A stretch of DNA of 64,000 bases from a virus (IMGVR_UViG_2907128583_000005:128001-192000); one strand, 5' to 3'; counted from the first letter of the stretch, positions 1,805 through 21,309 are shown. The notes: generated from the letters alone by a model not told the origin. Numbers and translations: made by a program.

Positions 1805-1880
1805 AATAAAAATTATATTTTACTCACTATAAAACAAACTTTGTGGTGCGGTTATTTAGCTGCATCGTTCAGAGGTTGAT

Positions 1881-1979
1881 TCAGCAGAGATCAATCAGCA
1901 ATTCGCTTGCCTTCAACCCTTCCCCAATACCAATTAGATATACAGCCTTCCTAAGTGCTTCTCTTGCCTTCTCGTCCAC
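1881..1979 (-). CDS. 32-aa small protein (MDEKAREALRKAVYLIGIGEGLKASELLIDLC)
   Basis: Manual translation; GTG start with AAGGGG RBS. Confidence 0.45.
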   Translation of the reverse strand: MDEKAREALRKAVYLIGIGEGLKASELLIDLC

Positions 1980-2009
1980 TATTGCTGCTTCCCCTTACTT
2001 GTATGTATT

Positions 2010-2090
2010 TTATCCATTGCACTCATGGAGGATGTGCTTAACGTGTTCCAACACATCCTCTAGTTTCTTACCACACTTCTCACAATACAT
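2010..2090 (-). CDS. 26-aa zinc-finger-like peptide (MYCEKCGKKLEDVLEHVKHILHECNG)
   Basis: Manual translation; AGGTGA RBS 8 nt upstream; CxxC plus H/H/H/C ligands. Confidence 0.55.
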   Translation of the reverse strand: MYCEKCGKKLEDVLEHVKHILHECNG

Positions 2091-2153
2091 TCTGCATTTC
2101 ACCTATCTTTTTAATTAAAACTACATTTCAACTGCCATCCATAAATATCTAAA

Positions 2154-2432
2154 TTAATCTTCTATAAACTTTTGTCTTTTTATACATTCTACATGCTTCT
2201 TATGTTGCTTCTTTTTCTCTTCGTCCCAAGGCTCATACTCTAAAATATTTTCAGACATATACAATCTTACTACTAATTTTCCATTTACCATTCTTTCTAC
2301 TACATATTTGTCCTTAACATCACAATAACCTTTTATCCATCCAATACTCGCACCTCTTACCCATATGCGTTGGTTATAGCTCCATTTATTTTGTTTAGAT
2401 TTTAAGTTATCTATTAGTCTATTTGATACCAA
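2154..2432 (-). CDS. hypothetical phage protein
   Basis: ORF with GGGAG RBS in the - strand array. Confidence 0.65.
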   Translation of the reverse strand: MVSNRLIDNLKSKQNKWSYNQRIWVRGASIGWIKGYCDVKDKYVVERMVNGKLVVRLYMSENILEYEPWDEEKKKQHKKHVECIKRQKFIED

Positions 2433-2466
2433 CCCATTTTTCTCCCTTCCGCTTAAGATATAAAGA

Positions 2467-2742
2467 TCAAGAGAGTATCACCAATTGCGTATCATTATGT
2501 CTAAGTTGTTCTTTGAACATGTCTAAGGTTTCTTTGTTTCTACTAATTCGGGTTACGTCGGTCACAATAACAGCGTCAACTTCTGATAGATTATTGGTAG
2601 CTAATTCTAAATCTACATCACTCGCTACTACAACAATGTGAACAAGATTGATACCTTCTGATATTGCATACTGATTTATTTTATTTTGCTGTTCGTCTAT
2701 GCTCCATTCGATAGACGATCTTACGATTGCCATAGCCTTCAT
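2467..2742 (-). CDS. stand-alone serine recombinase (resolvase) catalytic-domain fragment
   Basis: AIVRSS...SIDEQ...DAVIVTDVTRISR motifs; only 91 aa, no DNA-binding domain. Confidence 0.7.
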   Translation of the reverse strand: MKAMAIVRSSIEWSIDEQQNKINQYAISEGINLVHIVVVASDVDLELATNNLSEVDAVIVTDVTRISRNKETLDMFKEQLRHNDTQLVILS

Positions 2743-2796
2743 GAATTAATACTCCTTTACTATTCGCATTAATATTGGACTAATCAAACTTGCATT

Positions 2797-3951
2797 TTAT
2801 AAAGCTTCTACCCAGTTTACGGCTATCTCAAAATCGTTAATTACTTTCTCGGTATCCCTCGCATTGGGCATGAGCGAAGAATGAGCAATCTTATGACGGT
2901 ATCTATTCCTGTGGGAATTAATGTTTGTCCAAAGAGTAGGATTGTTTCGTACCAGTGATTGCCCTGCCTTCTCATTCAATTGTCTGTCGCATCTCCTATA
3001 AAAATTAGTCTTTGTGCTGTCTAAGAAAGTATCAATTTCCGCTTGCGTGTTTCCATTCAAATACATTTTCTCAATGATTTTTTGTTCTACAGCAACCTCA
3101 AGAGCTGCGGAACTATTAATGATTGCTGAACGGTACTCTCCTCTTTCAGCAAGATTGCGAGCCATTATAATCAAATCTTTAGTAGGTGGAATATCGAAAC
3201 CATTTATAAGTCTTTCTTTTAATGTTTCAACATGATTACTATCGATCTCTGGTAACCATTTTTGATATGGCATCATGCTAGGTGCTTTTCCAGCATGCTT
3301 AATAGAATCATAATAATAACCATCGACAAACTGTCTCGATGTCGTCCCCTTAAGAGTATGCATAGTTGTAGTTTCGACAAAAAAATCATTTCGCAGATAA
3401 GAATATTGTTTTATGAATTGATTTAAAGCATTATGATAGGGATAAACTAATCTGCTAAGTTCATTCAATCTCCTATTAACAACGTAATCTATTTTTTCTT
3501 CTAAAACCTGATCTGTATTGTAGGTGCCAAATTCTGTTGTCGCCATTCTAGTTAAATCAATGGTATCAGTATATTTAATTCCTTCTCTTATCATTTTTGA
3601 TTTAATTTTATCAATCAAGTCGTCGTTCGTGACATTTAAATACAGTTCATCTTTTAATTCTAGTTCCTCCTCAATTGTACAACTAATATAACTTTTACAA
3701 GGTTCGAAAGCATAATTTGGAATACGATTATTGATTATGTAACTTTCCAATTCCGCTCTCTCACCTTCGATACACATGGCAGACTTTTTGCTACCAAAAG
3801 GATTAATATGTACTCTGAAAACATCATCACTTAATTTTAGGATAAAATCTTTCTCTTCTGTTGGGTTTAGTCTCGTTCTTACTGAATAATCTCCATTTGG
3901 AAGTTGAATCATAAATGGTAGCTCGTTTGTGAACTGAACCTTTAATTTCAT
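2797..3951 (-). CDS. protein with C-terminal HEPN-like domain (candidate RNase / defence effector)
   Basis: YRSAIINSSAALEVAVE helix and RHKIAH (Rx4H) motif; GGAGAGGAG RBS favours ATG 3951. Confidence 0.7.
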   Translation of the reverse strand: MKLKVQFTNELPFMIQLPNGDYSVRTRLNPTEEKDFILKLSDDVFRVHINPFGSKKSAMCIEGERAELESYIINNRIPNYAFEPCKSYISCTIEEELELKDELYLNVTNDDLIDKIKSKMIREGIKYTDTIDLTRMATTEFGTYNTDQVLEEKIDYVVNRRLNELSRLVYPYHNALNQFIKQYSYLRNDFFVETTTMHTLKGTTSRQFVDGYYYDSIKHAGKAPSMMPYQKWLPEIDSNHVETLKERLINGFDIPPTKDLIIMARNLAERGEYRSAIINSSAALEVAVEQKIIEKMYLNGNTQAEIDTFLDSTKTNFYRRCDRQLNEKAGQSLVRNNPTLWTNINSHRNRYRHKIAHSSLMPNARDTEKVINDFEIAVNWVEAL

Positions 3952-3989
3952 TTTATTCTGGGTCTCCTCTCCATTATGAAACATGCCTT

Positions 3990-4355
3990 TTACCAGCTAC
4001 CAGAATACTTGTTCACCGTTATAGGATAATGATATATCTCAATATCCTCATCGATAAAACCTCTCCGCTGAGCAGCTAACAACGTTTCATGCATGTTCTT
4101 GCGTCCCACAGGGTTGTCTGTATGTAAATATATCTTATCAGCCCTCAATCCATGTTCACAGAAGTACTTCACCAAGTCATATCCGTTAGGCAGTTCTTTA
4201 CCATCTACGTCCTCTCCCAAATCATGGTCTAACGTAAGAATGCCGACACTTTTGGTTTCAAGGATATGTATTGCTTCATAGTATGTACGAGCCACCACAA
4301 AGCCATCTGGACAGTCTCTAAGATCGTCAACATACAGGTCAATCTTATCAGTCAC
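3990..4355 (-). CDS. cyclic-phosphate-processing receiver (cREC) domain protein
   Basis: LYVDDLR.CP...ART..EAI...LTLDHDLG...GYD...LHTDNPVGRKNM signature. Confidence 0.85.
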   Translation of the reverse strand: MTDKIDLYVDDLRDCPDGFVVARTYYEAIHILETKSVGILTLDHDLGEDVDGKELPNGYDLVKYFCEHGLRADKIYLHTDNPVGRKNMHETLLAAQRRGFIDEDIEIYHYPITVNKYSGSW

Positions 4356-4386
4356 AGCTATGCTCCTTCCCTGTGAAACACATCTT

Positions 4387-4740
4387 TTACTTTAACTCAA
4401 AGGTATCCAATATAAATTTAACTTCGTCTGCTGAAATTGAAATTATTTTTCTCACACCTTCAACCTTTTCTTCTTCGTTTGCCATGATTACAACTATTCC
4501 TGTAAGTTGTTTGCCTTCAATCTCAATATTTGGTCTTTTGTCATCACTTAAAGCAGTAGGTACTGAGTGTACACTTAGACTTGTTCCTTTGATTGGCATT
4601 CCAATCGGATGGTTTCCTATAATTTCAGCTAGGCTATTAATGTGATTATCCATCCATCTAACATCAAATCCCAAGTCAGGATCTAAGACCATTATTCTTG
4701 TTTTCTCATAAACAGGTTTTTTCTTCTTGAACCAATTCAT
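4387..4740 (-). CDS. hypothetical protein (DUF3846-like, tentative)
   Basis: L.EIIG...PNI....LTGIVVI pattern. Confidence 0.55.
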   Translation of the reverse strand: MNWFKKKKPVYEKTRIMVLDPDLGFDVRWMDNHINSLAEIIGNHPIGMPIKGTSLSVHSVPTALSDDKRPNIEIEGKQLTGIVVIMANEEEKVEGVRKIISISADEVKFILDTFELK

Positions 4741-4773
4741 TTTCTTACCACCATTCACTTTTGAATAACCGTC

Positions 4774-5139
4774 TCACAAAGTTTCATCTGAACCTCCAAA
4801 TTTATCAAAAATATCTACTAAACTAATAGCAGAAACAATCGGATGTGTTTTTTCTTTATCTCCGGGCAAATAAACAATTTCATTATCGATTTTTTCTTGA
4901 ATTAGATTAATAAGAAGCTTGGCTCCAGCAACGTATATTTCATGTAAATTCCCGTCGATATCGTAGTTATAATCTTCACCACGTTTTGGAACTTTAAACT
5001 CTTCCAACAGATACTGAATATCACTAGATTCGAGTCCAATCTGTGATAGTCCATAGGTTAATCTAACAACTTTCGATTCAAATGGATGTGCAACCATTTC
5101 TCCATTTAAAATATGATATCCGTAAGGTGCTTCAGACAT
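4774..5139 (-). CDS. protein resembling the isolated recombinase DNA-binding domain of large serine recombinases
   Basis: APYGY...GEMV..P.ESKVVRL.Y.L...G pattern. Confidence 0.55.
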   Translation of the reverse strand: MSEAPYGYHILNGEMVAHPFESKVVRLTYGLSQIGLESSDIQYLLEEFKVPKRGEDYNYDIDGNLHEIYVAGAKLLINLIQEKIDNEIVYLPGDKEKTHPIVSAISLVDIFDKFGGSDETL

Positions 5140-5185
5140 ATGAGTACCTCTTTCCTTAAAATATTTTCAAGGTAAAACAGTCATT

Positions 5186-5545
5186 TCACACAAATTGAAT
5201 TGAGATTCCGTCTTCAGTTGTCTGAACGCTCACTGTTAACTCAACCAATTTATTCTCTTCTATCCTCTTTAGTATTTGTACTTCATCGTGTGTAAAATTT
5301 CCATCAATGAAGAGCTTAAACCTGTCCTGTCTCTCTTGAAGTTCATCTGCAAGGTATTCGTTTATTCCTTTTACTAAATCTTCAATTTTGTCCATCTTAT
5401 CAATCATTAGAAATTTATCTTCTAAATAAAGCATTCCCTTTGTGACAGGAACACCTTTATAATCAAAGAAAATATCACCTTTTTCTTTATTGAAGATCTC
5501 GGCCATTGCTATATTCTTTGTTGCTTTTCCTTTAACCAGTCTCAT
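5186..5545 (-). CDS. hypothetical phage protein
   Basis: AAGGAG RBS; bounded by junction elements 5172 and 5560. Confidence 0.75.
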   Translation of the reverse strand: MRLVKGKATKNIAMAEIFNKEKGDIFFDYKGVPVTKGMLYLEDKFLMIDKMDKIEDLVKGINEYLADELQERQDRFKLFIDGNFTHDEVQILKRIEENKLVELTVSVQTTEDGISIQFV

Positions 5546-5568
5546 GTCTTCATCTCCTTATAAATTAG

Positions 5569-5808
5569 TTATTTCACGTAAATCTCTTTAATGTCAGTTG
5601 CTAAAGTTCCAATTAATAGTATCATATCTCTTTCTGTTAGTTTTTTATTTTCTTTTAGTAAGCTTAATATATTTTGAACGCATTCTTCAACCTTCATATC
5701 CTTGTAGTGATCTTGAGCCTTTTCGAGTTTTTCAATGGCTTCTTTTGCGTCATAAGATGCCATTGACATTCTAGCAAACCCCTCCAGAACCTTATCCTGT
5801 GCATTCAT
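5569..5808 (-). CDS. hypothetical phage protein
   Basis: AAGGAG RBS; bounded by elements 5560 and 5832. Confidence 0.75.
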   Translation of the reverse strand: MNAQDKVLEGFARMSMASYDAKEAIEKLEKAQDHYKDMKVEECVQNILSLLKENKKLTERDMILLIGTLATDIKEIYVK

Positions 5809-5848
5809 ATTGTTACTCCTTCATTTTATGAATAAAATAAACCTTTTA

Positions 5849-6010
5849 CTACAACATAATATATTGATTGCCATCATCCATGAAAGCCACCAACAATGAC
5901 TTCCTTTTAATAGTCCTAGCTTGAAAGGCGACAATGCGTGAAACATCTACTTCCATTTCCTTTTTAGTTGCTTCGTCGTATACGAATATCTTCTTTTTAT
6001 CCTGACTCAT
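5849..6010 (-). CDS. 53-aa hypothetical protein (not in ORF track)
   Basis: MSQDKKKIFVYDEATKK...; GAGGTGA RBS. Confidence 0.65.
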   Translation of the reverse strand: MSQDKKKIFVYDEATKKEMEVDVSRIVAFQARTIKRKSLLVAFMDDGNQYIML

Positions 6011-6182
6011 TCTGTATCACCTCTGCGCAATAGCGCAATATTCTTCAAACTCTACAATACTATGTTACTAGTTTCTTTACAATGTTTGCCTATCGATAAA
6101 TAAATCATAACATATCTCTATACCATATTCAATATATTCATTATTTTTGTTTATTAAAAAGACCACATTAACGTTATCTTTA

Positions 6183-6305
6183 TTATGTATGTTTCAATAT
6201 TCTATGTTGTTCATATTGTTTCGCTGCTTCTTGTAATTCGATCCACTTGCCCTGATCATTCCTAACATACAGCTTATTATCTTTTAATGCCCCAGCTTTA
6301 AACAT
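6183..6305 (-). CDS. 40-aa hypothetical protein (not in ORF track)
   Basis: MFKAGALKDNKLYVRNDQGKW...; GGGGAGTGA RBS. Confidence 0.55.
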   Translation of the reverse strand: MFKAGALKDNKLYVRNDQGKWIELQEAAKQYEQHRILKHT

Positions 6306-6474
6306 AATGATACTCACTCCCCGTTAAAGAACTATAGATGTTCACATTAGCAGAAAAAATACTCCAGTGATAGAAACGATCAATCAATACAAAACTCATT
6401 GCTTCTTTGGAACGTCCAGCGGTTTCGATTTCTTCTTTTACTTTTCCATCTACAACTATCATATATGTATCCAT
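6298..6474 (-). CDS. 58-aa hypothetical protein (not in ORF track)
   Basis: MDTYMIVVDGKVKEEIE...; AAGGAG RBS. Confidence 0.6.
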   Translation of the reverse strand: MDTYMIVVDGKVKEEIETAGRSKEAMSFVLIDRFYHWSIFSANVNIYSSLTGSEYHYV

Positions 6475-6499
6475 CTCAAATTCTCCTTTTATTATATTT

Positions 6500-6673
6500 T
6501 TATTCGTTAGACAGAGGTACTACTTGTTCCGTTGCTTCTGTAATATCTTCAGCATCATGCCAATTCTCAAACTTGACAGCTAGATCTACGTCATGCGTAT
6601 ATAGTTGACCGCGCTGTTCTTCCCAATCTGCTCTAAGGTATTTCTTCGTTTCTGTATTAATTACTGTAAACAT
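6500..6673 (-). CDS. 57-aa hypothetical protein (not in ORF track)
   Basis: MFTVINTETKKYLRADWEE...; GGAGG RBS. Confidence 0.65.
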   Translation of the reverse strand: MFTVINTETKKYLRADWEEQRGQLYTHDVDLAVKFENWHDAEDITEATEQVVPLSNE

Positions 6674-6753
6674 ATTTATTCCTCCGTTGTTATGTGAATT
6701 ATAGTTATTAAAAGACTTATTTTATCTGTAACATTTCCCTATTGCTGATAACA

Positions 6754-7149
6754 CTAACTCTTAACAAGCTTTTCAAAGTCATAAATAAATGACTCCATTT
6801 TTTTCTTATTGAATTGATAAAGTTTGTGTTCATTTAATGCTGGTCTATCTATAAAAATTGTGTTTTCTCGGATATGAAGATAGCCATTAGTGTCGAGTTC
6901 TTTGTCATAATATTCGTAATAGTCTGATCCTAAACTGTCGGCTCCCTTGGGAGATAAATTAGCCCAAGCTTCATTCGCAATCATTTTAATGTAGTTATAC
7001 AACTCTACGAAATCCTTAAGTTCAAAATTATATGTAACATTATATTTATTATTTATTTGGTTTTGATTCATTTCAAATATCACTGCTGATTTTCGATGTT
7101 TAACAATTAACTCTGTCCCGTTAGAACATGTAAAAACCCTAGTCTTCAT
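6754..7149 (-). CDS. hypothetical protein
   Basis: AAGGAG RBS, 131 aa. Confidence 0.75.
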   Translation of the reverse strand: MKTRVFTCSNGTELIVKHRKSAVIFEMNQNQINNKYNVTYNFELKDFVELYNYIKMIANEAWANLSPKGADSLGSDYYEYYDKELDTNGYLHIRENTIFIDRPALNEHKLYQFNKKKMESFIYDFEKLVKS

Positions 7150-7250
7150 AATCTTCGCTCCTTCTTACTTGATTACATTCCAGTATTTGCATATCATACA
7201 AATAGATTAGTATAATTAAATTAATCTTAAATTGAGAAAGGAAAATATGA

Positions 7251-7505
7251 ATGGTAGTAAAAATCAAAAATTTGGGTTATGGATTAAGCGCACTATCCTT
7301 CGTTTATGCTATTTATGCATACTTCATCAAACATCTGCTAAGGGTTACTCCAGATACACGAGAATTTATGGGTTCTCAGATTAGCAATTCGCTTAATAAA
7401 GATTTAGTTCAAGCATTAAATGACTACACTGTGTCTATTCCATTTGCTTTTATTTTCTTAGCGATTGGTATAGCAATTATTTTTGCTAATAAATACTTTG
7501 ATTAA
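7251..7505 (+). CDS. two-TM membrane protein with its own promoter and terminator (moron-like)
   Basis: Two hydrophobic segments; TTGCAT-18-TATAAT at 7187-7216; GCGAC-ttttg-GTCGC hairpin plus T run downstream. Confidence 0.75.
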   Translation: MVVKIKNLGYGLSALSFVYAIYAYFIKHLLRVTPDTREFMGSQISNSLNKDLVQALNDYTVSIPFAFIFLAIGIAIIFANKYFD

Positions 7506-7550
7506 GTTGCGACTTTTGGTCGCTTCTTTTTTTGTTATCAAATACTTCTT

Positions 7551-7805
7551 TTATAAATAATCTTGATAGTTAGCAATGGCTTGATTTTTTCGTTTTGATA
7601 GCTCAAGTAACAACAATTCGTAGAGTTCGATATTTTCACGTAGTTCAAAGAAGTATTCAAAATCGTCATTCTTTGGGTTCTTATCTTGTGCTTCAATTAA
7701 TCGAAATACCTTATCAATGATCTCCATAAACTCTTCATGTTCCATCTCACTTAAGCGACTCTTAACATCTTCGTAATTCTTCCTTCGTTTCTCATTAATA
7801 TTCAT
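7551..7805 (-). CDS. hypothetical protein
   Basis: GAGGAG RBS; stop codon lies inside element 7537. Confidence 0.7.
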   Translation of the reverse strand: MNINEKRRKNYEDVKSRLSEMEHEEFMEIIDKVFRLIEAQDKNPKNDDFEYFFELRENIELYELLLLELSKRKNQAIANYQDYL

Positions 7806-7832
7806 TCGATCATCTCCTCATAAGAAACACTT

Positions 7833-8177
7833 CTATTCACTAAGAATATTATTTATTTTTATTTTCAATTTATCTTCAAGTTCATCTGTTAATCTAGAAA
7901 TTGAACGAAGTGAATCCATAAAATCTTTGTCTAATTTATCCTCAATCATTCCTTCAGCCCTCTTCTTTACCATATCCTCGAATTGTCCACCAATGTGTTC
8001 GAATACTTTAGCTAATGGCAAGTCTACTCCATTGATAATTAATTTTGCTTCCATAGATGAAGGATCATATCCTTTTTGATATAAGGGACTGTTTTTACCT
8101 ACTGCACTTAACGCTTCAATAATAAAATATCCCGTCCATGAATCGATACCGTGTTCCCATAAATCAAATTTGCTCAT
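7833..8177 (-). CDS. hypothetical phage protein
   Basis: AGGAG RBS. Confidence 0.75.
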   Translation of the reverse strand: MSKFDLWEHGIDSWTGYFIIEALSAVGKNSPLYQKGYDPSSMEAKLIINGVDLPLAKVFEHIGGQFEDMVKKRAEGMIEDKLDKDFMDSLRSISRLTDELEDKLKIKINNILSE

Positions 8178-8195
8178 CTAATTTCTCCTATTATT

Positions 8196-8669
8196 TCATT
8201 GTATATCAGAATCTTCTATAAATTTTCCAACGAAAAACATATTGTCTTTCTCTTCTTCAAAATCACTTTGGTAATAAACAATCGGTGAATTATGTAAGTC
8301 CGTTATCTTATATTGTGTATCACTGTACCCATAACCATCAATGCTTTCACTTTTGATCAAAAAGAAGCGATTCTTATAAAGGTATAGATTAGTTCGTTCA
8401 ATGTTTCTTTCTTCTGAGGAAAAGTATCCAACAAAAGTGAGTTCATCGCACATCATTTGCTGCTCAAGTTCCTTAAGAAACTCAATCAATGTTTTAAGAC
8501 CATAGTTCAATGTTATTTTCGCATTAATAATATCGCCGTTTAATGTAATAAAATCATCATGCCCACATCTAGGCAGTTTGGAAATTTCATTATTAACTTT
8601 TAGTACCTTATTCTCTGTCATTCTAAGACTTAACTTGACTTGTGAATACATTGACATTTTTCTCATCAT
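8196..8669 (-). CDS. hypothetical protein
   Basis: 157-aa ORF in the array. Confidence 0.65.
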   Translation of the reverse strand: MMRKMSMYSQVKLSLRMTENKVLKVNNEISKLPRCGHDDFITLNGDIINAKITLNYGLKTLIEFLKELEQQMMCDELTFVGYFSSEERNIERTNLYLYKNRFFLIKSESIDGYGYSDTQYKITDLHNSPIVYYQSDFEEEKDNMFFVGKFIEDSDIQ

Positions 8670-8699
8670 CCCTTTTATTCTTATAAAAGAATCCTTTTA

Positions 8700-8891
8700 T
8701 CAATACTTCCGAGCAAAGATAATTACACAATCTTCCTCATTGAATCCTTCCAATAATGACTGAATATGAAATCCTCTATCATCTTCTCGCTTAGAATTAA
8801 CATTAACAAAAACATTCTTTTCAGAACTAGCTCTATAAATTGCTGGACTGTCATCAAAAGTTCTATCTACTGAATACTCAACTTGTTTCAT
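8700..8891 (-). CDS. hypothetical protein
   Basis: ORF ending at element 8683. Confidence 0.6.
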   Translation of the reverse strand: MKQVEYSVDRTFDDSPAIYRASSEKNVFVNVNSKREDDRGFHIQSLLEGFNEEDCVIIFARKY

Positions 8892-8928
8892 CTTTCACAA
8901 TTCTCATCTCCTTATAAAATCAATCATG

Positions 8929-9276
8929 CTAATTCACTAATATCCATCGATCATTAGCATCATCATACACGAAAGCAAACACACCTATCGTAGACTTCAC
9001 ATTAACAAATCGACTATTGGCAATTTGCCTTCCCGCTTCTTTTGTCAACCTGAGCATAAAGAAATTCAAAAACTTCACATTAGAACAAGCAAAGACATAA
9101 TCTACTGTTTCAGTAAAGTCTAAATTTTGATCTAGTGTAACTAGATCCTCAAAATTTACTAACGATGGAACAGCAAAAGTTATATATGAATCGTATTTAT
9201 TATCAAGAATCATCTTTTGATCTGGACTCAACATTGCGCCTTCATCTATAAATACTTTTGCTTTCAATGAATTCAC
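8929..9276 (-). CDS. hypothetical protein
   Basis: GGAGGTGA RBS (true start probably the TTG just downstream). Confidence 0.7.
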   Translation of the reverse strand: MNSLKAKVFIDEGAMLSPDQKMILDNKYDSYITFAVPSLVNFEDLVTLDQNLDFTETVDYVFACSNVKFLNFFMLRLTKEAGRQIANSRFVNVKSTIGVFAFVYDDANDRWILVN

Positions 9277-9306
9277 CTCCAGTATAATGAAAATAAAATA
9301 ATCTTT

Positions 9307-9468
9307 TTACTGACTTTCAAGATCAAAACAAATGCTGAGTAGCTCTTTAGTGCCAATTCTTTTCTTAACTCCATCTTTAGTTATAAAGAATCCTGGTTTA
9401 TCGCTATTCTCTGTAACTTTTATCCCTTGTTCTTTTGCCAGATTCATCATTTTCTCTATATCAGCTAT
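9307..9468 (-). CDS. 53-aa hypothetical protein, probable ATA start (not in ORF track)
   Basis: GGAGTGA 5 nt before in-frame ATA; stop inside element 9293. Confidence 0.5.
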   Translation of the reverse strand: MADIEKMMNLAKEQGIKVTENSDKPGFFITKDGVKKRIGTKELLSICFDLESQ

Positions 9469-9512
9469 TTGTATCACTCCTATCTTTGTCTCCTCGTAAA
9501 ATATTCATTTGA

Positions 9513-9677
9513 TCAGATATATTTCAAAATTTTTGTACTGACTTCAGCATGAGGATTTTGCGTGAAGATCTTCTTCGAAATTTCAGTAGCTTTCTTATGA
9601 AGTTCGGTTAAATCACCACGGATTCCCATTCCGCCGTTATAACACTTGCCGTTAGCGTATACGAACATAATAAACAT
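9513..9677 (-). CDS. 54-aa hypothetical protein (not in ORF track)
   Basis: MFIMFVYANGKCYNGG...; GAGGAGTGA RBS. Confidence 0.6.
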   Translation of the reverse strand: MFIMFVYANGKCYNGGMGIRGDLTELHKKATEISKKIFTQNPHAEVSTKILKYI

Positions 9678-10167: not shown

Positions 10168-10179
10168 GTTTATCGCTCC

Positions 10180-13761: not shown

Positions 13762-13844
13762 ATATATATCTTCCTTTTTGATTTGTCAGGCGGTCTCACC
13801 CTGCCGTCTTCCTCGCTGTTATGAGTAATTATTTACTTATTATT

Positions 13845-14084
13845 TTATTCCTTAGTGTTGAATCCACCATGATCATCCTCAGCAAGAATTTCTGCACATA
13901 GTCCAATGCATTCGTTGCAAATACAGATGTTCTTTGCTGTCACCATTTTATCCACTTCAGATTGACTCTTACCGCAAAATGAGCAACGCAACTCACAATC
14001 TCTTTCGGGAAAAGCGATTAATTCATCATACTTCTTTGCCTTTTCCATCAACGTCATGGCTTCTTGCATAGCTTGTGGATTCAT
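13845..14084 (-). CDS. stand-alone ClpX C4-type zinc-binding domain protein
   Basis: LRCSFCGKSQSEVDKMV...ICICNECIGLCAEIL. Confidence 0.9.
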   Translation of the reverse strand: MNPQAMQEAMTLMEKAKKYDELIAFPERDCELRCSFCGKSQSEVDKMVTAKNICICNECIGLCAEILAEDDHGGFNTKE

Positions 14085-14122
14085 AAACCTACCACTCCTT
14101 ATGTATTTTTATATTGTAAAAT

Positions 14123-14299
14123 TCAACTTTTACGCACTTCTCGTTCTTCATAATAATATTCTAGATAAGGTTTATCTCGATTGTGATCATCACAAAATGC
14201 CTTTGCTGCTTCTTCACTTTGAAAAATATCCACCAAAACCCTATTGACGCTGAAGACATACGCTTCTTCTGCATCCTCAAGTACAACAAATACTCTCAT
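14123..14299 (-). CDS. 58-aa hypothetical protein (not in ORF track)
   Basis: MRVFVVLEDAEEAYVF...; GGGAG RBS; stop codon in the core of element 14116. Confidence 0.6.
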   Translation of the reverse strand: MRVFVVLEDAEEAYVFSVNRVLVDIFQSEEAAKAFCDDHNRDKPYLEYYYEEREVRKS

Positions 14300-14387
14300 G
14301 CATACTCTCCCTATATTCTAATAAAATAAATCAATACTAATTTAACGCTTACCAACGCATCCTCCTGATCTTTCTTATAACTTCTCT

Positions 14388-14600
14388 TTATGATTTTTTT
14401 GATTTGTGCTGCTGCATCATTTCGCGCATACGATCCATTCCCACGCTTTTTGTTTTCTCTGTACTGGAAGCATAATCAATAAATTCGTTATAGCTTTTAA
14501 AATCCAACTGAGCAACTGTGGGACGTATTTCCTTAATTTTTACTTCTTTCAATTTAGTCCTTCTTTCTATGTATTGATGATAAAAGTCCGTTTTTATCAT
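14388..14600 (-). CDS. hypothetical protein (real start probably the TTG downstream of element 14580)
   Basis: Internal GAAGGA RBS before TTG. Confidence 0.55.
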   Translation of the reverse strand: MIKTDFYHQYIERRTKLKEVKIKEIRPTVAQLDFKSYNEFIDYASSTEKTKSVGMDRMREMMQQHKSKKS

Positions 14601-14624
14601 GAAGATACCTTATATTTTAATAAC

Positions 14625-15485
14625 TCATGCGTTTCTAAGTTCCAATTTAAATCCAATAGATTGCAGCTTGACTATTCGTTCTTGCGACAATTTATTCATT
14701 TTATAAGCTTGACGTTGGTTGGATACCCAGTTGCCTAGATTTACTTTACCTTCTATATATACTCTTGGAACGTTGCAATTTCCATGGTTGTATTTATATT
14801 GACGTAGAATTTCATAGAAGCTGTCCCACGTTTCATTTTGGGTTTCCCATTGAAAACCAATTGAATTAAGTCTGTCTATACGTTTTTGAGAAAGCAGATT
14901 ATTTTTTAATAGTTGTCTTTGAGTTGTAACCCATCTTCCTAATTTTATGTTGTCGACCTCATAATGCTGTGGAACACAGATATTTCCCTTAATATTTTTA
15001 TAATTATTTAACAAGTTAAAATATTTGTTCCATGTTTTTTCATGTAAATCCCATGTAAACCCTAAATCCTCCAGTTTCTTTATTCTATCTTCTGACAACA
15101 AATTTTTTTCATAAGACTTTCTCTGTTGGTTTACCCACATACCAAGTTTAATATCCTTATATACATAACTTACTGGAACATCACAATCACCATACTGGTG
15201 CTTATATTTTAATAGTAAACTGTATTTATCAGCCCATTTTTTCTTATCATCTTTTATTCTTATATTGTAATTAAAACCAACAGTATTCAATTTCTCAATT
15301 TGATCTTGCGACAATTTTCCTTTACGATAAGATTGCCTTTGTGTTTTTACCCACATACCAAGTTTAATATCGTCTACTACATAATTTTGAGGTACATTCG
15401 CATGTTTATATGTATCTTTATATTTTAACAAAAAGATAAACTTTTTGTTCCACGAAGCAATTCTATTGTTGTAACAATGTTTCAT
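14625..15485 (-). CDS. helicase-associated (HA) domain repeat protein, four repeats, no helicase
   Basis: Four copies of W...L..YK...G...VP..Y....LG.WV..QR......LS..RI.KL..IGF. Confidence 0.9.
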   Translation of the reverse strand: MKHCYNNRIASWNKKFIFLLKYKDTYKHANVPQNYVVDDIKLGMWVKTQRQSYRKGKLSQDQIEKLNTVGFNYNIRIKDDKKKWADKYSLLLKYKHQYGDCDVPVSYVYKDIKLGMWVNQQRKSYEKNLLSEDRIKKLEDLGFTWDLHEKTWNKYFNLLNNYKNIKGNICVPQHYEVDNIKLGRWVTTQRQLLKNNLLSQKRIDRLNSIGFQWETQNETWDSFYEILRQYKYNHGNCNVPRVYIEGKVNLGNWVSNQRQAYKMNKLSQERIVKLQSIGFKLELRNA

Positions 15486-15536
15486 TTTGTCTCCTCCTTA
15501 ATTTGTCAAGAGTAAAATAACTGTTTCATCATCTAT

Positions 15537-15803
15537 CTAGTCTTCCATGCTTTTTCTCAACCTGTTTGCTTCTAATTCCAAAAACAATATCTTATCTCCA
15601 GTATTTATGTCTTTTGCTATAAAAGCCTCATCTTCATTTAAAATTTCAGATAGTTGTTCAAGTCTAGATTTAGGAATTGGTCTTTTCTTGCTCAGCCACC
15701 CCATTATAGTTGGAGAAGAAATTCCTAATTGCTCCGCAAGTTTTTTATACTCAACGTCTCTATATTTACAGATCAACTCTAACCCAATGGTCACATTACT
15801 CAA
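15537..15803 (-). CDS. Xre-family HTH regulator
   Basis: YKKLAEQLGISSPTIMGWLSKKRPIP. Confidence 0.85.
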   Translation of the reverse strand: MSNVTIGLELICKYRDVEYKKLAEQLGISSPTIMGWLSKKRPIPKSRLEQLSEILNEDEAFIAKDINTGDKILFLELEANRLRKSMED

Positions 15804-15832
15804 CTCCTTAAAAAATCCTGCTTTTACTATAA

Positions 15833-16036
15833 TTAATTCCTGATGTACTTTCGCAGCATTTTGCTAATTTGATCTTCTTTACATAGGCCTTGAACCAGCA
15901 GTCTTGCTCCTGTCCCCGCTTCAACTGACTTAATTTTTGTGATATACATTTTCTTCCCCTCGACATCGATCAAATCACCAACAGATACCTTATCGGAGAC
16001 CATAATATCGAAGCTTACTGATTTGTTATTTTTCAT
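15833..16036 (-). CDS. hypothetical protein
   Basis: AAGGAG RBS immediately after element 16050. Confidence 0.7.
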   Translation of the reverse strand: MKNNKSVSFDIMVSDKVSVGDLIDVEGKKMYITKIKSVEAGTGARLLVQGLCKEDQISKMLRKYIRN

Positions 16037-16063
16037 CTGTGAACTCCTTATAAAATACTGTTT

Positions 16064-16258
16064 TTACTCAAAAAATTTCACATCTTTTTCATATGATGCT
16101 GCCGGGATCGATCCAACATTTGATTTGATAACTTCATAATCGTATTTATGCTCCCAACCATCTTGAAACATTATCTTTCTATGATTTTTTCTCTCCTCTT
16201 TACTGTTATATTCACAATCTCTTGTTATGAATTCTGAAACGATTTTCATGTAAAGCAT
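16064..16258 (-). CDS. hypothetical protein
   Basis: AAGGAGG RBS; TAA lies inside element 16050. Confidence 0.7.
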   Translation of the reverse strand: MLYMKIVSEFITRDCEYNSKEERKNHRKIMFQDGWEHKYDYEVIKSNVGSIPAASYEKDVKFFE

Positions 16259-16273
16259 CCTCCTTTAGAAACT

Positions 16274-16579
16274 CTATAGTTTTTCAATTTTCCCCATCAT
16301 TATACTCTTTATATCTTTGTAGCCTTTATTTTGTTTTATTGAAACAATGGTTTCTTTACTCGAAGGATCATCGAAGATATAAGCAACAACACCTTTATAT
16401 GATCTACTTCCAACTACTTCAATCTTTACATTATCACCAATCTGTACGCCGTATTTTTTAAACCTCTCATTGCAAATCCCAACAACTTCCGATCTATATT
16501 CTTCATAATCTTGTCCCTGCTTTGGTGCTTGCTGTACAAACCATTGTCCTGAGCCGATTTCAATACTCTCATTATTCAT
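16274..16579 (-). CDS. hypothetical protein
   Basis: AGGAGGAG RBS. Confidence 0.75.
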   Translation of the reverse strand: MNNESIEIGSGQWFVQQAPKQGQDYEEYRSEVVGICNERFKKYGVQIGDNVKIEVVGSRSYKGVVAYIFDDPSSKETIVSIKQNKGYKDIKSIMMGKIEKL

Positions 16580-16823
16580 AAATTTCTCCTCCTAAAATTT
16601 CCATATATTTTTTTGTCGTATGCTTTATAGTTCCATTTATTTATATTTATTTCTTATAAAATCGTTGTTTTAATTGGTTACAATACATTGTTTCTATCTC
16701 CCGATACAGTGTTGCTTTCTTTGTTAAAACTATTATATCATCATTCTTTATATTTATCAATATTCATTATATTTAATTATATTAAAAAACTGAGCCTGCA
16801 ATTAGACTCAGTTTTTAATACTA

Positions 16824-17882
16824 CTATTTTAATTCCACTAATCCATTTTTGTCTTTCGTGTAAGTTCGCCCCAATGATTCTTCTTCTATGGTTGCAATTT
16901 CTCCCGTATTATTAACACCACTAAGAACTATTTTTCGAATTGCTTTAATGTTTGATTCTAAAGCCAACTTACTTTTCTTAAGCTTGCTAATAGTTCTATC
17001 TTTCTTATTAATCTCTACTGCTTTAGCTTCCAGTTCTAATTCCTTAAGTTCTAATTTATGCTTAATCTCTCTTGTTTCAAGTTTTAATTGACTAACTTTC
17101 AATTCTAACTCTTTTACAGTATTCATATTTTCTAGAAATCTATTTATTTCTAAGTGAATTTGATTTAATTCAGTTTTGTTTTCTTCCTTTGGATTACCCA
17201 GTTCTGTTTGGTGACTTTCTTGAGATTCCTTATTAAAATAAACTAAATTATTTGTCGATATATAATTCTCTAATGATCCATGCTTCTTGGTAACATTTCG
17301 ATATTTTTGATAAACTGTTTGAGGATTCTTTTTAAGTGCCTTTGCAGCTATCTTAATTGATTCCATCTTACTATTTCCGCTTTTTCTCTCTTGATTAAAT
17401 ATTTTGTTTAAAGTAAGAACATCTTCATCTGTCCAGCCCCCAATTACAATCTTTTTTTGTTCATTGGTTGTGTTTTCCTCTATACTTAACAAATAATTTC
17501 TTACTTCCTTTGCAATAACACTATCACGTAACAACATTCCAATTCTCAGTACGGATCTTCTCGTAAACACATTAATCATTTTCCTCGGAATAACCAATAC
17601 TGAATTGTTTTCAGTATTAAAATCCACCGCTTCTTCTCCTTTTAACATTAACATACCATCACTAACAAATTCGTTTCGTTGTTTTTTTATAATTTGTTCT
17701 ATGACATTTTTATCTACTTCATAGTACTCAGCTATCATTTTTGCTGTAATGTGTTTATTATCTGGCAACATAGAAAGTACTTTTACTTTATCAAGCACTT
17801 CTATTCGATCTATGTATTTATTTCTAATGCTGCAATTCTCAGAAGTAGTGAAACTTTCATCATATAATTTCAGTATACTCAT
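16824..17882 (-). CDS. antirepressor-like DNA-binding protein with central Myb-like motif and coiled coil
   Basis: IEVLDKVK.L.MLP....T..MIAEYYEV...VLRIGMLLRDSVIAKEVRNYLL N-terminal domain; WTDED motif; heptad-rich C-terminus. Confidence 0.7.
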   Translation of the reverse strand: MSILKLYDESFTTSENCSIRNKYIDRIEVLDKVKVLSMLPDNKHITAKMIAEYYEVDKNVIEQIIKKQRNEFVSDGMLMLKGEEAVDFNTENNSVLVIPRKMINVFTRRSVLRIGMLLRDSVIAKEVRNYLLSIEENTTNEQKKIVIGGWTDEDVLTLNKIFNQERKSGNSKMESIKIAAKALKKNPQTVYQKYRNVTKKHGSLENYISTNNLVYFNKESQESHQTELGNPKEENKTELNQIHLEINRFLENMNTVKELELKVSQLKLETREIKHKLELKELELEAKAVEINKKDRTISKLKKSKLALESNIKAIRKIVLSGVNNTGEIATIEEESLGRTYTKDKNGLVELK

Positions 17883-17905
17883 TTTTATTCTCCTCTACTT
17901 TTCAC

Positions 17906-18082
17906 TTATTTATAAGATTCAATCAATTTCTCCAGTTTCATTATTTCAGGTTTTTGTAGTGGCTGCTTATCATTAATAAATAGCGAGAACAATGAATTAC
18001 TTATAGATAATTTACTAGCAATAAATGATTTCTTAATTCCTCTTTCACTAATTAACTGAAGCGTTCTTTCTCTTAGTGTCAT
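17906..18082 (-). CDS. Cro-like HTH regulator
   Basis: GIKKSFIASKLSISNSLFSLFIN; GGAGGTGA RBS before ATG 18082. Confidence 0.8.
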   Translation of the reverse strand: MTLRERTLQLISERGIKKSFIASKLSISNSLFSLFINDKQPLQKPEIMKLEKLIESYK

Positions 18083-18126
18083 GCACTCACCTCCGTTAAA
18101 ATTTATTTTAATGTTCTCTTGAGATA

Positions 18127-18155
18127 AGTATATCATTCTGTTTCTACTCTGTCAA
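18127..18155 (-). promoter_or_regulatory. sigma-A promoter TTGACA-17-(TGa)TATACT
   Basis: Consensus -35 and extended -10; conserved box at 18160 directly upstream. Confidence 0.8.
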
Positions 18156-18267
18156 TATATTCATTATATTTAGTTGTTTAATATATAATGATGTTACTCT
18201 CAATAAAAAAGCGCTTGAGATATTAACTCAGCGCTTCTTATTAGTAAAAGTAACAATTTATCAATCT

Positions 18268-18942
18268 CTATTCTGTGAACATCCAATCCTTAGTCACCCA
18301 TTGAATAACCTTAGCAAATCTATTTTCATCGAAATGAATAAATTCTTTATTATACCATTCGGTTAATTCCTTATCATGTTTACTACTATTGCATTCTTTA
18401 CAAGCTGGAACACAGTTGTCAATAAAATTGCTGCCTTCGTGAATAACATGATCTCTATGTAGTTGTTGTCCATTAACTGCGAAATGTATTTCTTGAGTCA
18501 TATCGCAATAAGCACATTTCCATTCAAAATACTCTAAACATCTACTCCACTCATCTTGGGTGATTTCATGAGACTTATTGAATCTTTTCTGTCTATAGAG
18601 TTTTAATTTATCCTTATTTTTTCTTTGCCACTCCCGCAAAAGTCCATTTTCTCTTCTTTTTTTCTCAGACAGTCGCCTTTTTTCTTTATTCTGAGGCTTA
18701 TCATTTCTTTTCTTTTGGAATGTAAGGGTCTTTTCATAATTTTCTTTGTTCCATTTAGTTGAGTTACTAATATTGCATTGCTTGCATTTTGGATTTAGGC
18801 CATCTTTTTTATTGCTCAGGTTTTTATAGAAATATATTTCATTGCAAGGGTACCACTGATTACAATTGGAACATAATTTTTGTTGTTCGCTTTCAAAAAA
18901 TCTATGACTATCTTCAAAACTTATTCGCTTTCTATCTCGCAA
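18268..18942 (-). CDS. HNH endonuclease
   Basis: CAYC...HRDHV...GSN..DNCVPACKECNSSKH plus N-terminal CxxC pairs. Confidence 0.9.
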   Translation of the reverse strand: MRDRKRISFEDSHRFFESEQQKLCSNCNQWYPCNEIYFYKNLSNKKDGLNPKCKQCNISNSTKWNKENYEKTLTFQKKRNDKPQNKEKRRLSEKKRRENGLLREWQRKNKDKLKLYRQKRFNKSHEITQDEWSRCLEYFEWKCAYCDMTQEIHFAVNGQQLHRDHVIHEGSNFIDNCVPACKECNSSKHDKELTEWYNKEFIHFDENRFAKVIQWVTKDWMFTE

Positions 18943-19029
18943 ACCAATTATTCTCCCTTTTTATAAATTAAAATTTTATATAAAAAAACAAAACCAAACC
19001 TCTTTTAGCTTGTTGGTTTTGTATATTAC

Positions 19030-19461
19030 TTAAAGCTTTCCTTTTTTCAATTTTAATTTATTTTCTCGAGTCAATACATACCTTTTACTTGATGTGTTAT
19101 TGCTTCCGTCCAGAACAAAAGCAACTAACGATACTCCAAAAGCCACAATCGTTGAATAGTTTGATAGTAGGTTTATATCTAGAGTTTTTTCAAACTCACC
19201 AGTGTATAGCAGCATAAAACTACGTGAAATCACTGCAATCATGATGAGAATACATAATATTGTAACACCTTTATAAAACTTTGTAGCTACCTTTCTCAAC
19301 AAGGCAAAGAGTAGTATCATGAGCGAAACAATAAAAGAAAAAACAGTTATTACAGACGATATAAATGGTGAAACTTCAATTTTAAAGAAAATCACGACAA
19401 TTCCATAAACTATAAAAATAACTGCAATTAATAATAACATACCATGATAAATATGCTTCAA
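19030..19461 (-). CDS. multi-pass membrane protein
   Basis: Four hydrophobic segments and a basic C-terminus. Confidence 0.7.
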   Translation of the reverse strand: MKHIYHGMLLLIAVIFIVYGIVVIFFKIEVSPFISSVITVFSFIVSLMILLFALLRKVATKFYKGVTILCILIMIAVISRSFMLLYTGEFEKTLDINLLSNYSTIVAFGVSLVAFVLDGSNNTSSKRYVLTRENKLKLKKGKL

Positions 19462-19845
19462 GAAAATCTTCCTTTTTGTAAGTTTAGAATAGTTTTATTG
19501 TGAGCATGTCACCCATTAAGTTATGTATACATTTTAGTATAGTAGATATATCTACATTATTTCAATCATGTATTTAGATTGCATTGCTACGCATTGGTTT
19601 GTACGGTACATGTATGAGAGAAATTGAATGAGTGTTGATCTTCAGATAGTACAGTTCTTCAGCATCAAGTTTCTTATTGATTTGCTTCACAATTTCTCAA
19701 TTTTCATTAAGTATATTCTCCCATCAAAGCAATTTTATAATTATACATATTTATGAATTAAAATATCATTAAATGCGAGTTTTATACATTTATTATTGAA
19801 TATTAATACATTTGTAACTACGTAAAACAAGAATTTTATGCACAA

Positions 19846-20250
19846 TTAATTTATTGAACAATCATATAAATTGTTCATATAGCGCATTGTTGCGGTTGCT
19901 ATTTTTCTATCTCCTTCTGTAGGATAAACTTTCCACTCTATTCCAAAAATAAAGCCATTATCATTACCTTTTTTTACTTCCTCTTCTATTACTGAATCAA
20001 TTTGTGCAAAAATCGTTTTACTAGTAACGGTGTCCGAATGTACATGTATTACGTTTACTTTGTCAACCAAATAATCATAAATTGTCTTAAAACCCTTCTT
20101 TGCAACCAGTAAATTAATAGTTAATTTCAAACCTTTTTTTGTTTCTGATATACGTGCTGAATAGTCTTTAGTTGACCATCCATACATTCTCAATATCTCT
20201 TGTTTTGCTGATTTTAGTAATATTCTTGCTTGATCTTTATCCGTTATCAT
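19846..20250 (-). CDS. hypothetical protein
   Basis: GGAGG RBS; flanked by elements 19822 and 20290. Confidence 0.75.
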   Translation of the reverse strand: MITDKDQARILLKSAKQEILRMYGWSTKDYSARISETKKGLKLTINLLVAKKGFKTIYDYLVDKVNVIHVHSDTVTSKTIFAQIDSVIEEEVKKGNDNGFIFGIEWKVYPTEGDRKIATATMRYMNNLYDCSIN

Positions 20251-20371
20251 GCTTATTCCTCCACATTCATATCTTTACTTTTTAAGGCTATGAAATCACT
20301 CATTTATCAACACTGATCATTAGCACCTAACCACCTGTTATAGACGGTTAACGCTCTAGGCTTAAAGCGTA

Positions 20372-20587
20372 TTAAATATAAGGTGAGAAATGTACAGAGG
20401 CATATTCTTTCGTTTCCCCATTATCATTTTCTATGATTAAATTTTTCGTTTGACTAATGTCTTTTATTTGATAGGCTTTTCCTACAGTAAAACCAGCCCA
20501 TTCGATACTCCAAGAAGCAAGCACAATATCGCCTTTGCCCCTCAAATAGTCTTTAACAGTGCAACCTATTCTTACTTTCATTTTCAT
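20372..20587 (-). CDS. hypothetical protein
   Basis: GGAGG RBS right after element 20601. Confidence 0.7.
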   Translation of the reverse strand: MKMKVRIGCTVKDYLRGKGDIVLASWSIEWAGFTVGKAYQIKDISQTKNLIIENDNGETKEYASVHFSPYI

Positions 20588-20657
20588 TCCTCCAATACTT
20601 ATAAAATGAGTATTTTACAAAGTCCTATTGTCTTACAGATAAACGATAGACCCCGTT

Positions 20658-20915
20658 TTAGATCATGCCTCGATCTTTCAGCGATTTTTCTAGTTTCTTT
20701 AATTCGTCGAACTTTTTAGCATACATATCATTGAAAGCTACGTGAATTATTGAGTTTTTAGCTTCCAATCTGTAAAACTCTTCTACTGCATCAACTAAGT
20801 TCTTGTACATAACTATGAAAAGGCGGTAGTCATAATCTTTGCCCTCACATTTTTTGAGTGTTTTATTAAAATTAATACCCATGTGAGATAATTTAATTCT
20901 TATATCCTCGCTCAT
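20658..20915 (-). CDS. hypothetical protein
   Basis: GGGAGGT RBS; promoter TTGAAT-17-TATAAT upstream. Confidence 0.7.
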   Translation of the reverse strand: MSEDIRIKLSHMGINFNKTLKKCEGKDYDYRLFIVMYKNLVDAVEEFYRLEAKNSIIHVAFNDMYAKKFDELKKLEKSLKDRGMI

Positions 20916-21081
20916 ACCCGCTACCTCCCGCGTAAGGCCGCCGACTGCTATGTATTAACTTACCTTATGAATTTATTATAACACATCATTTCATTATATT
21001 CAATAGTTTAATTATTTTTGTATGTTGAATTGTGATTATTCTCCTTCTCTACGTCGAACAGTTCCTTGTAAAATATCAGTT

Positions 21082-21309
21082 TTATAACCCTTTAGACTCA
21101 ACATAGGCGTAATACTCCTCAAATGATTTATGACCTCCATGCTGCTTATATTTTATGTATTGTTCCAACACAATTTGATTAAATTGTTTTAGAGTTAATT
21201 CAGCAAGATCTAAGTTCCCCTGTAAATAGCTCCAATATAGCCGTGATACGCCAGCAGGCTTTCTCTGAGGTTTATTCTTTCTCATGTAATCACCAACTTT
21301 CCTCCCCAA
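21082..21309 (-). CDS. hypothetical protein
   Basis: Stop codon inside element 21068. Confidence 0.65.
   Translation of the reverse strand: MGRKVGDYMRKNKPQRKPAGVSRLYWSYLQGNLDLAELTLKQFNQIVLEQYIKYKQHGGHKSFEEYYAYVESKGL

Follow-up and report, generated by a model that had tools for sequence, protein, structure and literature searches.

The 64,000-nucleotide stretch analysed here (the window; IMGVR_UViG_2907128583_000005:128001–192000) corresponds to bases 128001–192000 of a 218-kb IMG/VR provirus and carries, between many of its small genes, the palindromic motif RTAAAA-N6-TTTTAY. An earlier note, made from the window's sequence alone, had described these motifs as an integron-like array at 1806–21085, through which the phage might capture, excise and reshuffle gene cassettes. 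That stretch is the last fifth of a much larger array: the whole provirus record holds 49 perfect copies against one for the backward-read pattern, with 44 in a 100-kb minus-strand early arm, five in the late arm and none in the first 50 kb, which (GC 0.40–0.45) is presumably host DNA. Judged by its sequence, the source is a distant SPbeta-like prophage, because it has YomM-, YopP- and YonO-like genes and the phage collection yields no close DNA match to the array (megablast). The YonO-like open reading frame (ORF; 34358–37135, plus strand, 925 aa; 24% over 532 aa, E 6e-25; phrog_8308) opens the plus-strand arm; YonO is the single-chain RNA polymerase of SPbeta for late genes. BLASTP detects no homology to SPbeta YopR/YopQ in ORFs 24663–25685 and 25945–27141.

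The window contains 14 copies of the motif where 0.25 are expected, a count that none of 100 shuffles equalled; the earlier note had estimated well under one perfect chance copy per 64 kb. Allowing up to one mismatch gives 39 matches against 5.98 expected. All 12 perfect copies that it had listed are present, and two more lie outside its range (22403 and 57961); of the eleven near-perfect copies that it named, ten carry a single mismatch (2783, 3976, 4373, 5172, 6708, 7537, 9496, 15512, 16656 and 18244) and the eleventh, 20290, carries two. The constant spacing is equally well founded, with 14 copies at an arm spacing of 6 and 0–1 at each other spacing from 0 to 15, and the reversed arm order TTTTA-Nx-TAAAA shows no preferred spacing in the window. 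The logo of this phage's sites is symmetric (RTAAAAB-N4-VTTTTAY, with weaker outer symmetric positions), and eight one-mismatch sites (plus-strand list, 1806–21085) differ at position 3 or 16, the third arm position where mismatches had been said to fall. Two inverted arms around a 6-bp centre, as the spacing scan and logos reveal, are the geometry of Xer/dif, lox or FRT core sites.

Placement among the genes was read from our own rough gene calls. The early arm holds 84 sites, counted with up to one mismatch, and 71 are intergenic. The first-arm TAA is itself the upstream stop codon in 25 of the 84, the stop touches the site or shares one base with it in ten more, and the next start codon lies 13–36 nt downstream in 39; operon ends follow the order stop codon, site, terminator. 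The claimed arrangement on the coding (minus) strand, with the site between the upstream stop codon and the next ribosome-binding site (RBS), is thus what we find, as are the small gene units: intervals between sites at 1806–21085 have a median of 814 bp and contain 1–6 small called ORFs each.

We considered whether the motif belongs to transcription or to its products. Promoter-like sequences are not enriched in the window (69 against 96 expected in a consensus scan) and do not coincide with motif sites; of nine terminator-like sites, few are near motif sites, standing beside them and none within, and this lack of coincidence rules out the motif as promoter or terminator. A role in RNA, as a small A–U hairpin or as an intercistronic signal for processing or translation (one of two fall-back readings in the earlier note), would suit a motif that on the transcribed strand always lies between stop codon and RBS, and that is followed five bases later by an asymmetric A in 34 of 44 sites here and 31 of 32 in SPbeta. 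Pairing is nevertheless not what the bases preserve: the outer R..Y positions lack covariation, being A..C in 4 of 13 perfect sites (1806–22420), mismatches in the arms, including those at positions 3 and 16, lack the compensation that RNA pairing would need, and the stem would comprise only six A–U-rich pairs. We rejected the hairpin for this absence of covariation, and since the conserved unique centres and the breakpoints described below would also go unexplained, we regard any RNA-level role as very improbable.

Searching IMG/VR proviruses with a 1019-aa protein encoded beside the array gave four relatives (G001–G004, 158–171 kb), each with 44–46 perfect sites, which we compared whole. In each of them, 64–69 of the 84 early-arm sites recur with an identical centre and in the same order (65–71 identical-centre pairs per relative, 64–69 of them collinear), where shuffling the letters within centres gives a mean collinear chain of 3.1–3.5 and a maximum of 8. 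Forty-five of the 84 are shared with all four relatives and four with none. The sequence around these constant points is another matter: among 268 site–relative pairs, with 240-nt flanks compared at the protein level, both flanks are homologous in 57 and neither in 107, the upstream flank alone in 47 and the downstream alone in 57, against a background in which 1 of 126 comparisons of non-orthologous flanks passes the homology test. Alignments at 20601, 15512 and 10379 reveal an identical centre in all four relatives amid wholly unrelated sequence. Taking each shared centre as an address, the 264 intervals between consecutive addresses comprise 131 replaced (nucleotide coverage under 20%), 80 partly shared and 53 the same.

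Sites of the window are listed below; n/4 is the number of relatives with an identical centre, and flank states describe homology beside the site.

1806–1823: perfect; centre TATAAT on the coding (minus) strand; terminator follows; 4/4
2783–2800: one mismatch; centre TGCAAG; 3/4, two of these with neither flank homologous
3976–3993: one mismatch; centre GGCATG; 4/4, flank states mixed
4373–4390: one mismatch; centre GATGTG; 3/4
5172–5189: one mismatch; centre TGACTG; 4/4
5832–5849: perfect; centre GGTTTA; 4/4, upstream flank only in two, downstream only in one, none in one
6708–6725: one mismatch; centre TAAGTC; 3/4
7537–7554: one mismatch; centre GAAGTA; 4/4, every one with the downstream flank only
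8683–8700: perfect; centre GGATTC; 4/4, three with neither flank homologous
9293–9310: perfect; centre AGATTA; 4/4, three with neither flank homologous
9496–9513: one mismatch; centre TGAATA; 4/4
10379–10396: perfect; centre TGATCC; 4/4, neither flank homologous in any
10638–10655: perfect; centre CTATAT; 4/4
11536–11553: one mismatch; centre GATTAA; terminator follows
14116–14133: perfect; centre GTTGAA; 3/4
14580–14597: perfect; centre ACGGAC; 2/4, both with the downstream flank only
15512–15529: one mismatch; centre CAGTTA; 4/4, neither flank homologous in any
15810–15827: one mismatch; centre GCAGGA; 2/4
16050–16067: perfect; centre ACAGTA; RBS directly after the second arm; 3/4, neither flank homologous
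16656–16673: one mismatch; centre CAACGA; 4/4, every one with the upstream flank only
18244–18261: one mismatch; centre TGTTAC; terminator follows; 4/4
19822–19839: perfect; centre TTCTTG; upstream of a promoter-like region; 4/4
20601–20618: perfect; centre TACTCA; 4/4, neither flank homologous in any
21068–21085: perfect; centre CTGATA; directly after the gene for the 1019-aa protein; 4/4
22403–22420: perfect match, in frame, inside the ORF for the 1019-aa protein; one centre base differs in three relatives, both flanks homologous; probably no crossover joint
57961–57978: perfect; late arm, 13 bp past the stop codon of the YomM-like gene; centre CTATCC (plus strand); kept with both flanks in 4/4

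A fixed order of slots points to allelic replacement rather than reshuffling, and this bears directly on the integron-like reading, in which cassettes would be captured, excised as circles and reshuffled within one phage through any pair of sites. Part of that description stands: the geometry is that of recombinase sites, the sites are joints around units of 1–6 ORFs, breakpoints fall at them and tyrosine recombinases are present. Its core does not, because order is fixed in five phages, centres are never repeated, the sites spread over ~100 kb and have no attC-like structure, and the YomM-like and YopP-like recombinases score 32.5 and 34.2 bits with the integron integrase model TIGR02249 (NCBIfam), whose cut-off is 265. 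Excised or joined forms were absent from four public runs, which says little, as two (X3 and X4) are contigs and two barely covered the stretch, X24 having no read on it and X21 only 14. Capture, excision and reshuffling thus give way to replacement between genomes, and we would be greatly surprised if the integron-like account proved correct.

The earlier note had proposed asking whether breakpoints between relatives map to the centre; breakpoints of gene gain, loss and replacement do coincide with sites at base resolution, similarity dropping to the random level right at the site edge. We used a base-level mismatch profile anchored on the flanks alone, with the table limited to pairs with at least 5/6 centre bases equal. 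Sites with one homologous flank have a mismatch of 0.15–0.35 in that flank and of ~0–0.05 over the 18 bp; on a non-homologous upstream side it reaches ~0.65 immediately outside the site, and on a non-homologous downstream side it starts at 0.49 and reaches ~0.65 within five bases. The early arm contains 305 ends of BLAST blocks. Position alone would put 0.6% of them no more than 3 bp from the outer edge of a site, where 57 are found; sites with up to one mismatch account for 86 (6.8 expected) and two-mismatch sites for 24 (6.5 expected). The 14116 site plus 16 bp makes up a 34-bp BLAST match to record L004, and a long match to record L003 stops at 21068, the edge of a site. Raw RNA reads from another strain (run X21) include 14 that match only 11510–11553, a site plus its terminator, carry T>C at 11537 and cease to match exactly at the site edge, 11553; what lies to either side in the reads is unrelated. 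Breakpoints favour the sites but also occur elsewhere. We dropped the use of arm polymorphisms to locate the crossover within a site, a test that is non-discriminating because both parents carry the orthologous site.

Within the site, the centre is the part best conserved between phages, the opposite of the Tn916-like tolerance of non-matching coupling sequences that the earlier note had invoked. Without the filter on centre bases, its mismatch is 2.3% against 5.6–6.7% in the adjacent 5 bp where both flanks are homologous (36 pairs, Fisher p 0.04), 3.8% against 19.6% with the upstream flank only (52 pairs, p 2e-9) and 6.0% against 26% with the downstream flank only (58 pairs, p 1e-12); at positions 1 and 18, the degenerate ones of the arms, mismatch between phages is 8–28%. 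Centres are also unique. Across five genomes with 82–101 sites each there are no duplicate, no reverse-complement and no palindromic centres, where column-preserving shuffles of this genome expect ~2.6 duplicates, 2.6 reverse-complement pairs and 2.3 palindromes, and 0–5 of 2000 shuffles per genome reach zero such events. Because an unread spacer needs neither conservation nor avoidance of duplicates, reverse complements and palindromes, the centre appears to be read by a protein. In strand exchange it would have to pair with the partner's centre and with no other site in the genome, and its asymmetry would give the site a direction; asymmetric, conserved and unique centres are consistent with the identity between partners required at sites of the Xer/dif, lox or FRT type.

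These features also bear on a second way in which a protein might use the motif, as a regulatory docking site (bound, for example, by a catalytically dead recombinase-fold protein that would silence or punctuate the early arm in the manner of stoperators) at which crossovers occur incidentally through general phage or host recombination. SPbeta has such a protein: its master repressor MrpR (YopR) has the tyrosine-recombinase fold without recombinase activity, its catalysis having been lost, and binds the repeated SPbeta element SPBRE, to which the authors attribute ten peaks of chromatin affinity purification sequencing (ChAP-seq), according to passages of Kohm et al. 2023 (PMC10516654). Docking would further suit the fixed places of the sites relative to stop codon and RBS, the breakpoints that lie away from sites, and a Lys found at the second catalytic Arg position in YomM and in SPbeta YopP. 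It gives no reason why an unread spacer should exceed neighbouring bases in conservation, nor why duplicate, reverse-complement or palindromic centres should be avoided, and the conserved centres likewise tell against the plain repressor site that had been the other fall-back. We therefore consider docking unlikely, though it deserves more weight than the RNA or integron-like alternatives.

MrpR's own element is a different sequence. We derived an SPBRE core from words common to the ten SPBc2 promoters named in PMC10516654; 9 of the 10 share a non-palindromic AT-rich 15-mer around AATATGTATA. This core differs from TAAAA-N6-TTTTA, which rules out the motif as SPBRE or MrpR operator and removes MrpR's ten peaks, assigned to SPBRE, from the case for docking; the window shows no enrichment of AATATGTATA, with 24 matches where 16.9 are expected. 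A promoter-like site (10/12) at 19740–19769 on the minus strand overlaps an exact AATATGTATA copy at 19742–19751, near sites 19768 and 19822, and by its sequence this copy may be an MrpR-type operator. The SPBc2 record (L001) annotates two other 'palindrome' features, 27856–27871 and 32394–32411, upstream of yopM and after yopR; both are unrelated to the motif.

The same architecture is present in SPbeta itself, which has 34 exact TAAAA-N6-TTTTA copies against 0–3 at spacings 3–9 and, once a single mismatch is allowed, 24 matches in a 50-kb part of the early arm where 4.6 are expected. Its site is 28 bp long, with 11-bp arms and a 6-bp centre (T at −4 in 23/32, A at +23 in 31/32), and the downstream arm is better kept than the upstream. 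When SPbeta (64.5–111 kb) is set beside phi3T (54–100 kb), 13 of its 33 sites have a collinear partner with the same centre, against a null mean of 1.7 collinear pairs and a maximum of 4, and eight rows of that comparison (seven places) have a conserved site beside an unrelated 40-bp flank on one or both sides. Addresses shared between this phage and SPbeta do not exceed chance (3 pairs against a null of 2.2), so that address sets are specific to clades. The core motif is enriched in Perkons, E3, vB_BcoS-136, PBC2 and FADO (17–33 copies against 1–7 for the backward control), all of them with a gene for a YomM-like protein (E 1e-41 to 1e-141). Five Bacillus phages that lack such a gene, SPO1, G, AR9, 0305phi8-36 and SPP1, show no enrichment. 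We also rejected the idea that terminally redundant DNA circularises through identical sites in its redundant ends, because such a role would not conserve centres between phages and because packaging, in passages of 10.1101/2021.11.22.469490, starts between yonR and yonP and runs into the late arm, where sites are rare.

Two genes of the window, about 10 kb and 36 kb from the stretch 1806–21085, encode candidate enzymes:

31594–32667, minus strand: YopP-like tyrosine recombinase gene, the second candidate
56946–57947, plus strand: YomM-like gene of the tyrosine recombinase family, within the tail module; its product is a candidate for the protein that reads the sites

The YomM-like gene lies inside the block of tail genes, just before the tape-measure region, and is also found in record L048 (40301–41302, minus strand). 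Its product scores 39.1 bits with Pfam PF00589 (cut-off 27.1), has 57–64% identity to YomM of SPbeta-like phages, and belongs to a conserved family that SPbeta shares with E3, Perkons and the FADO/PBC2 group and in which all six sequences compared keep the pattern R..K..HxxK..H..Y. It is the better conserved of the two candidates (95–100% identical within the clade, 57% to SPbeta), which fits an arm sequence common to this phage and SPbeta. The YopP-like protein scores 71.1 bits with PF00589 (same cut-off), has 28% identity to SPbeta YopP (E 8e-36), and presents R, K, HxxR, H and Y in all five phages (G000–G004). Catalytic residues were mapped by alignment to chain 4a8e_A, using those of its residues that we take to be catalytic. 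Both proteins are nearest the XerA, XerC and XerD models, far under those cut-offs. One of these two proteins, or the two together, would be the probable enzyme.

An enzyme supplied by the host is a further option: the host Xer recombinases (CodV/RipX in Bacillus) might act on the sites by analogy with XerC/XerD on pdif sites, which flank adaptive modules (PMC6449649), and the 11-6-11 geometry does resemble dif-type sites. The distribution of the motif speaks for the phage instead, with no copy in the 50-kb host flank, with phage lineages that carry the motif across several host genera, and with Xer-like genes of the phages' own; we hold action by the host enzymes to be quite doubtful, somewhat less so than an integron-like or RNA-level role.

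Taken together, the observations point to sites that are centre-matched crossover joints at which phages exchange genes, because the order of addresses is common to the relatives and the genes lying between are not; we put the probability of this reading at about 0.6. On this view the motif would form the middle of a DNA site about 28 bp long and two-fold symmetric, whose 6-bp centre, set between 11-bp arms, acts as the address. Two phage genomes in one cell would swap the DNA lying between two shared addresses, and accessory genes would be replaced slot by slot without gene order being scrambled. Exchange would be carried out by a phage tyrosine recombinase that, like Cre, Flp and Xer, needs the same centre in the two partners. 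In its fullest form this amounts to natural recombinase-mediated cassette exchange between co-resident phages or prophages, among SPbeta-like and related large Bacillales phages, through ~90 mutually incompatible 28-bp Xer-like sites that index the early arm and through the YomM-like protein, the YopP-like protein or, to suit the slightly unequal arms, the two as a pair, a proposal that we offer tentatively and at less than even odds.

Several points weigh against crossover joints of this kind. The four relatives share ancestry, so the site pairs are not independent, and gene-relative positions rest on our own rough gene calls. Sites account for only about a third of block ends, and a block end within 45 bp is found at 86 of 260 site junctions against 103 of 516 site-free junctions, an enrichment of only 1.65-fold. 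Lys occupies the second catalytic Arg position in YomM (6/6) and in SPbeta YopP, which may mean weak or absent catalysis, and the co-occurrence of motif and YomM is confounded by phage lineage, such that any lineage-typical gene would fit. Binding or cutting by a protein at the sites is so far inferred, and general recombination over 18–28 bp of identity would leave the same breakpoints; such recombination at a protein-binding site is the main rival to centre-matched joints.

What occupies the slots is varied. Pfam confirms two of the labels that the earlier note had given, a cREC_REC protein (3990–4355) and a protein with four HA (helicase-associated) repeats (14625–15485), and finds no family at E ≤ 0.01 for its 'HEPN' gene (2797–3984). 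Further contents are a Bro-N protein (12805–13761), an ORF6N-like protein (16824–17882) and an HNH endonuclease (18268–18942), the five with a domain assignment all being on the minus strand; most remaining slot ORFs match no Pfam family. The 1019-aa protein used for the search (21321–24380, minus strand) has a C-terminal methyltransferase-like stretch (PF05175, 25.2 bits) and 79–88% identity in three relatives. Contigs from RNA-seq libraries with the same organism label (X3 and X4) span 1600–21500 of the window at depths of 5–59, with breaks near operon boundaries (11424/11719, 16705/16832, 17780/17798, 18101/18497 and 21044/21130); being contigs, they cannot prove transcription, nor show RNA ends or rare forms.

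Phage mosaicism is usually ascribed to rare illegitimate or short-homology events filtered by selection. Centre-matched joints would instead give a large and much-studied group, to which the model phages SPbeta and phi3T belong, built-in indexed joints, and would explain the fast replacement of small early genes without the breaking of operons. Many small early genes in this group serve counter-defence or host takeover, and accessory and counter-defence genes would spread slot by slot through the phage population with their order intact. The reading also offers a possible function for two conserved orphan recombinase genes and lends itself to direct tests in Bacillus subtilis 168. Should the centres prove orthogonal, dozens of non-cross-reacting recombination sites would become available for genome engineering.

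Among known systems, Cre/lox, Flp/FRT and Xer/dif all use inverted arms around a 6–8 bp asymmetric centre that must match between partners, and in cassette exchange with heterospecific lox or FRT sites different centres do not cross-react and the segment is swapped in register. Those are single natural sites or engineered pairs, whereas here there are ~90 natural distinct centres, with recombination deduced from sequence. Stoperators of cluster A mycobacteriophages are likewise dozens of protein-binding sites in short gaps of long temperate-phage operons, but are asymmetric, oriented with transcription and near-identical, where the sites here are symmetric and have each its own conserved centre. 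Integron arrays share the small gene units separated by recombination-type palindromic sites. Their attC sites are long imperfect palindromes of about 57–141 bp that fold as single strands; the present site has no attC structure, being an 18-bp core (28 bp with the weak outer positions) with a 6-bp unpaired centre, and there is no intI/attI/Pc platform and no matching integrase, with order fixed and centres unique.

We found no paper describing the motif, the search taking in passages of the SPbeta review PMC8270828, the hybrid-phage preprint 10.1101/2020.05.06.055103 and PMC10516654, and the literature on 'YomM' yielded unrelated papers only. Supplementary Table 1 of 10.1101/2020.05.06.055103, according to the passages of that paper, holds the recombination sites of phi3Ts–SPbeta hybrids and may bear on the joints proposed here. 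SPBRE, too, recurs between genes of SPbeta-like phages and is bound by a protein of tyrosine-recombinase fold; it differs in having ten promoter peaks in the passages of PMC10516654, where the present motif forms ~35–90 sites after stop codons. The PeSL cassettes of T4-type phages, a sigma-70-like promoter plus a terminator stem-loop, also mark indels and replacements as repeated intergenic elements in regions rich in non-essential genes; any of their copies can recombine through homology, giving mini-circles (Arbiol et al. 2010, PMC2839356), whereas our sites are neither promoters nor terminators and have unique centres in a fixed slot order. The pdif (XerC/XerD) sites that flank adaptive dif modules on Acinetobacter plasmids (Mindlin et al. 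2019, PMC6449649) are likewise many short inverted-arm sites with a 6-bp centre, flanking gene modules that vary between replicons; position-specific centres are not described there, to judge by the abstract. The sites reported here differ from them in being phage-borne, at ~90 per genome, with unique centres in a fixed order, another arm sequence and Xer-like genes of the phage's own.

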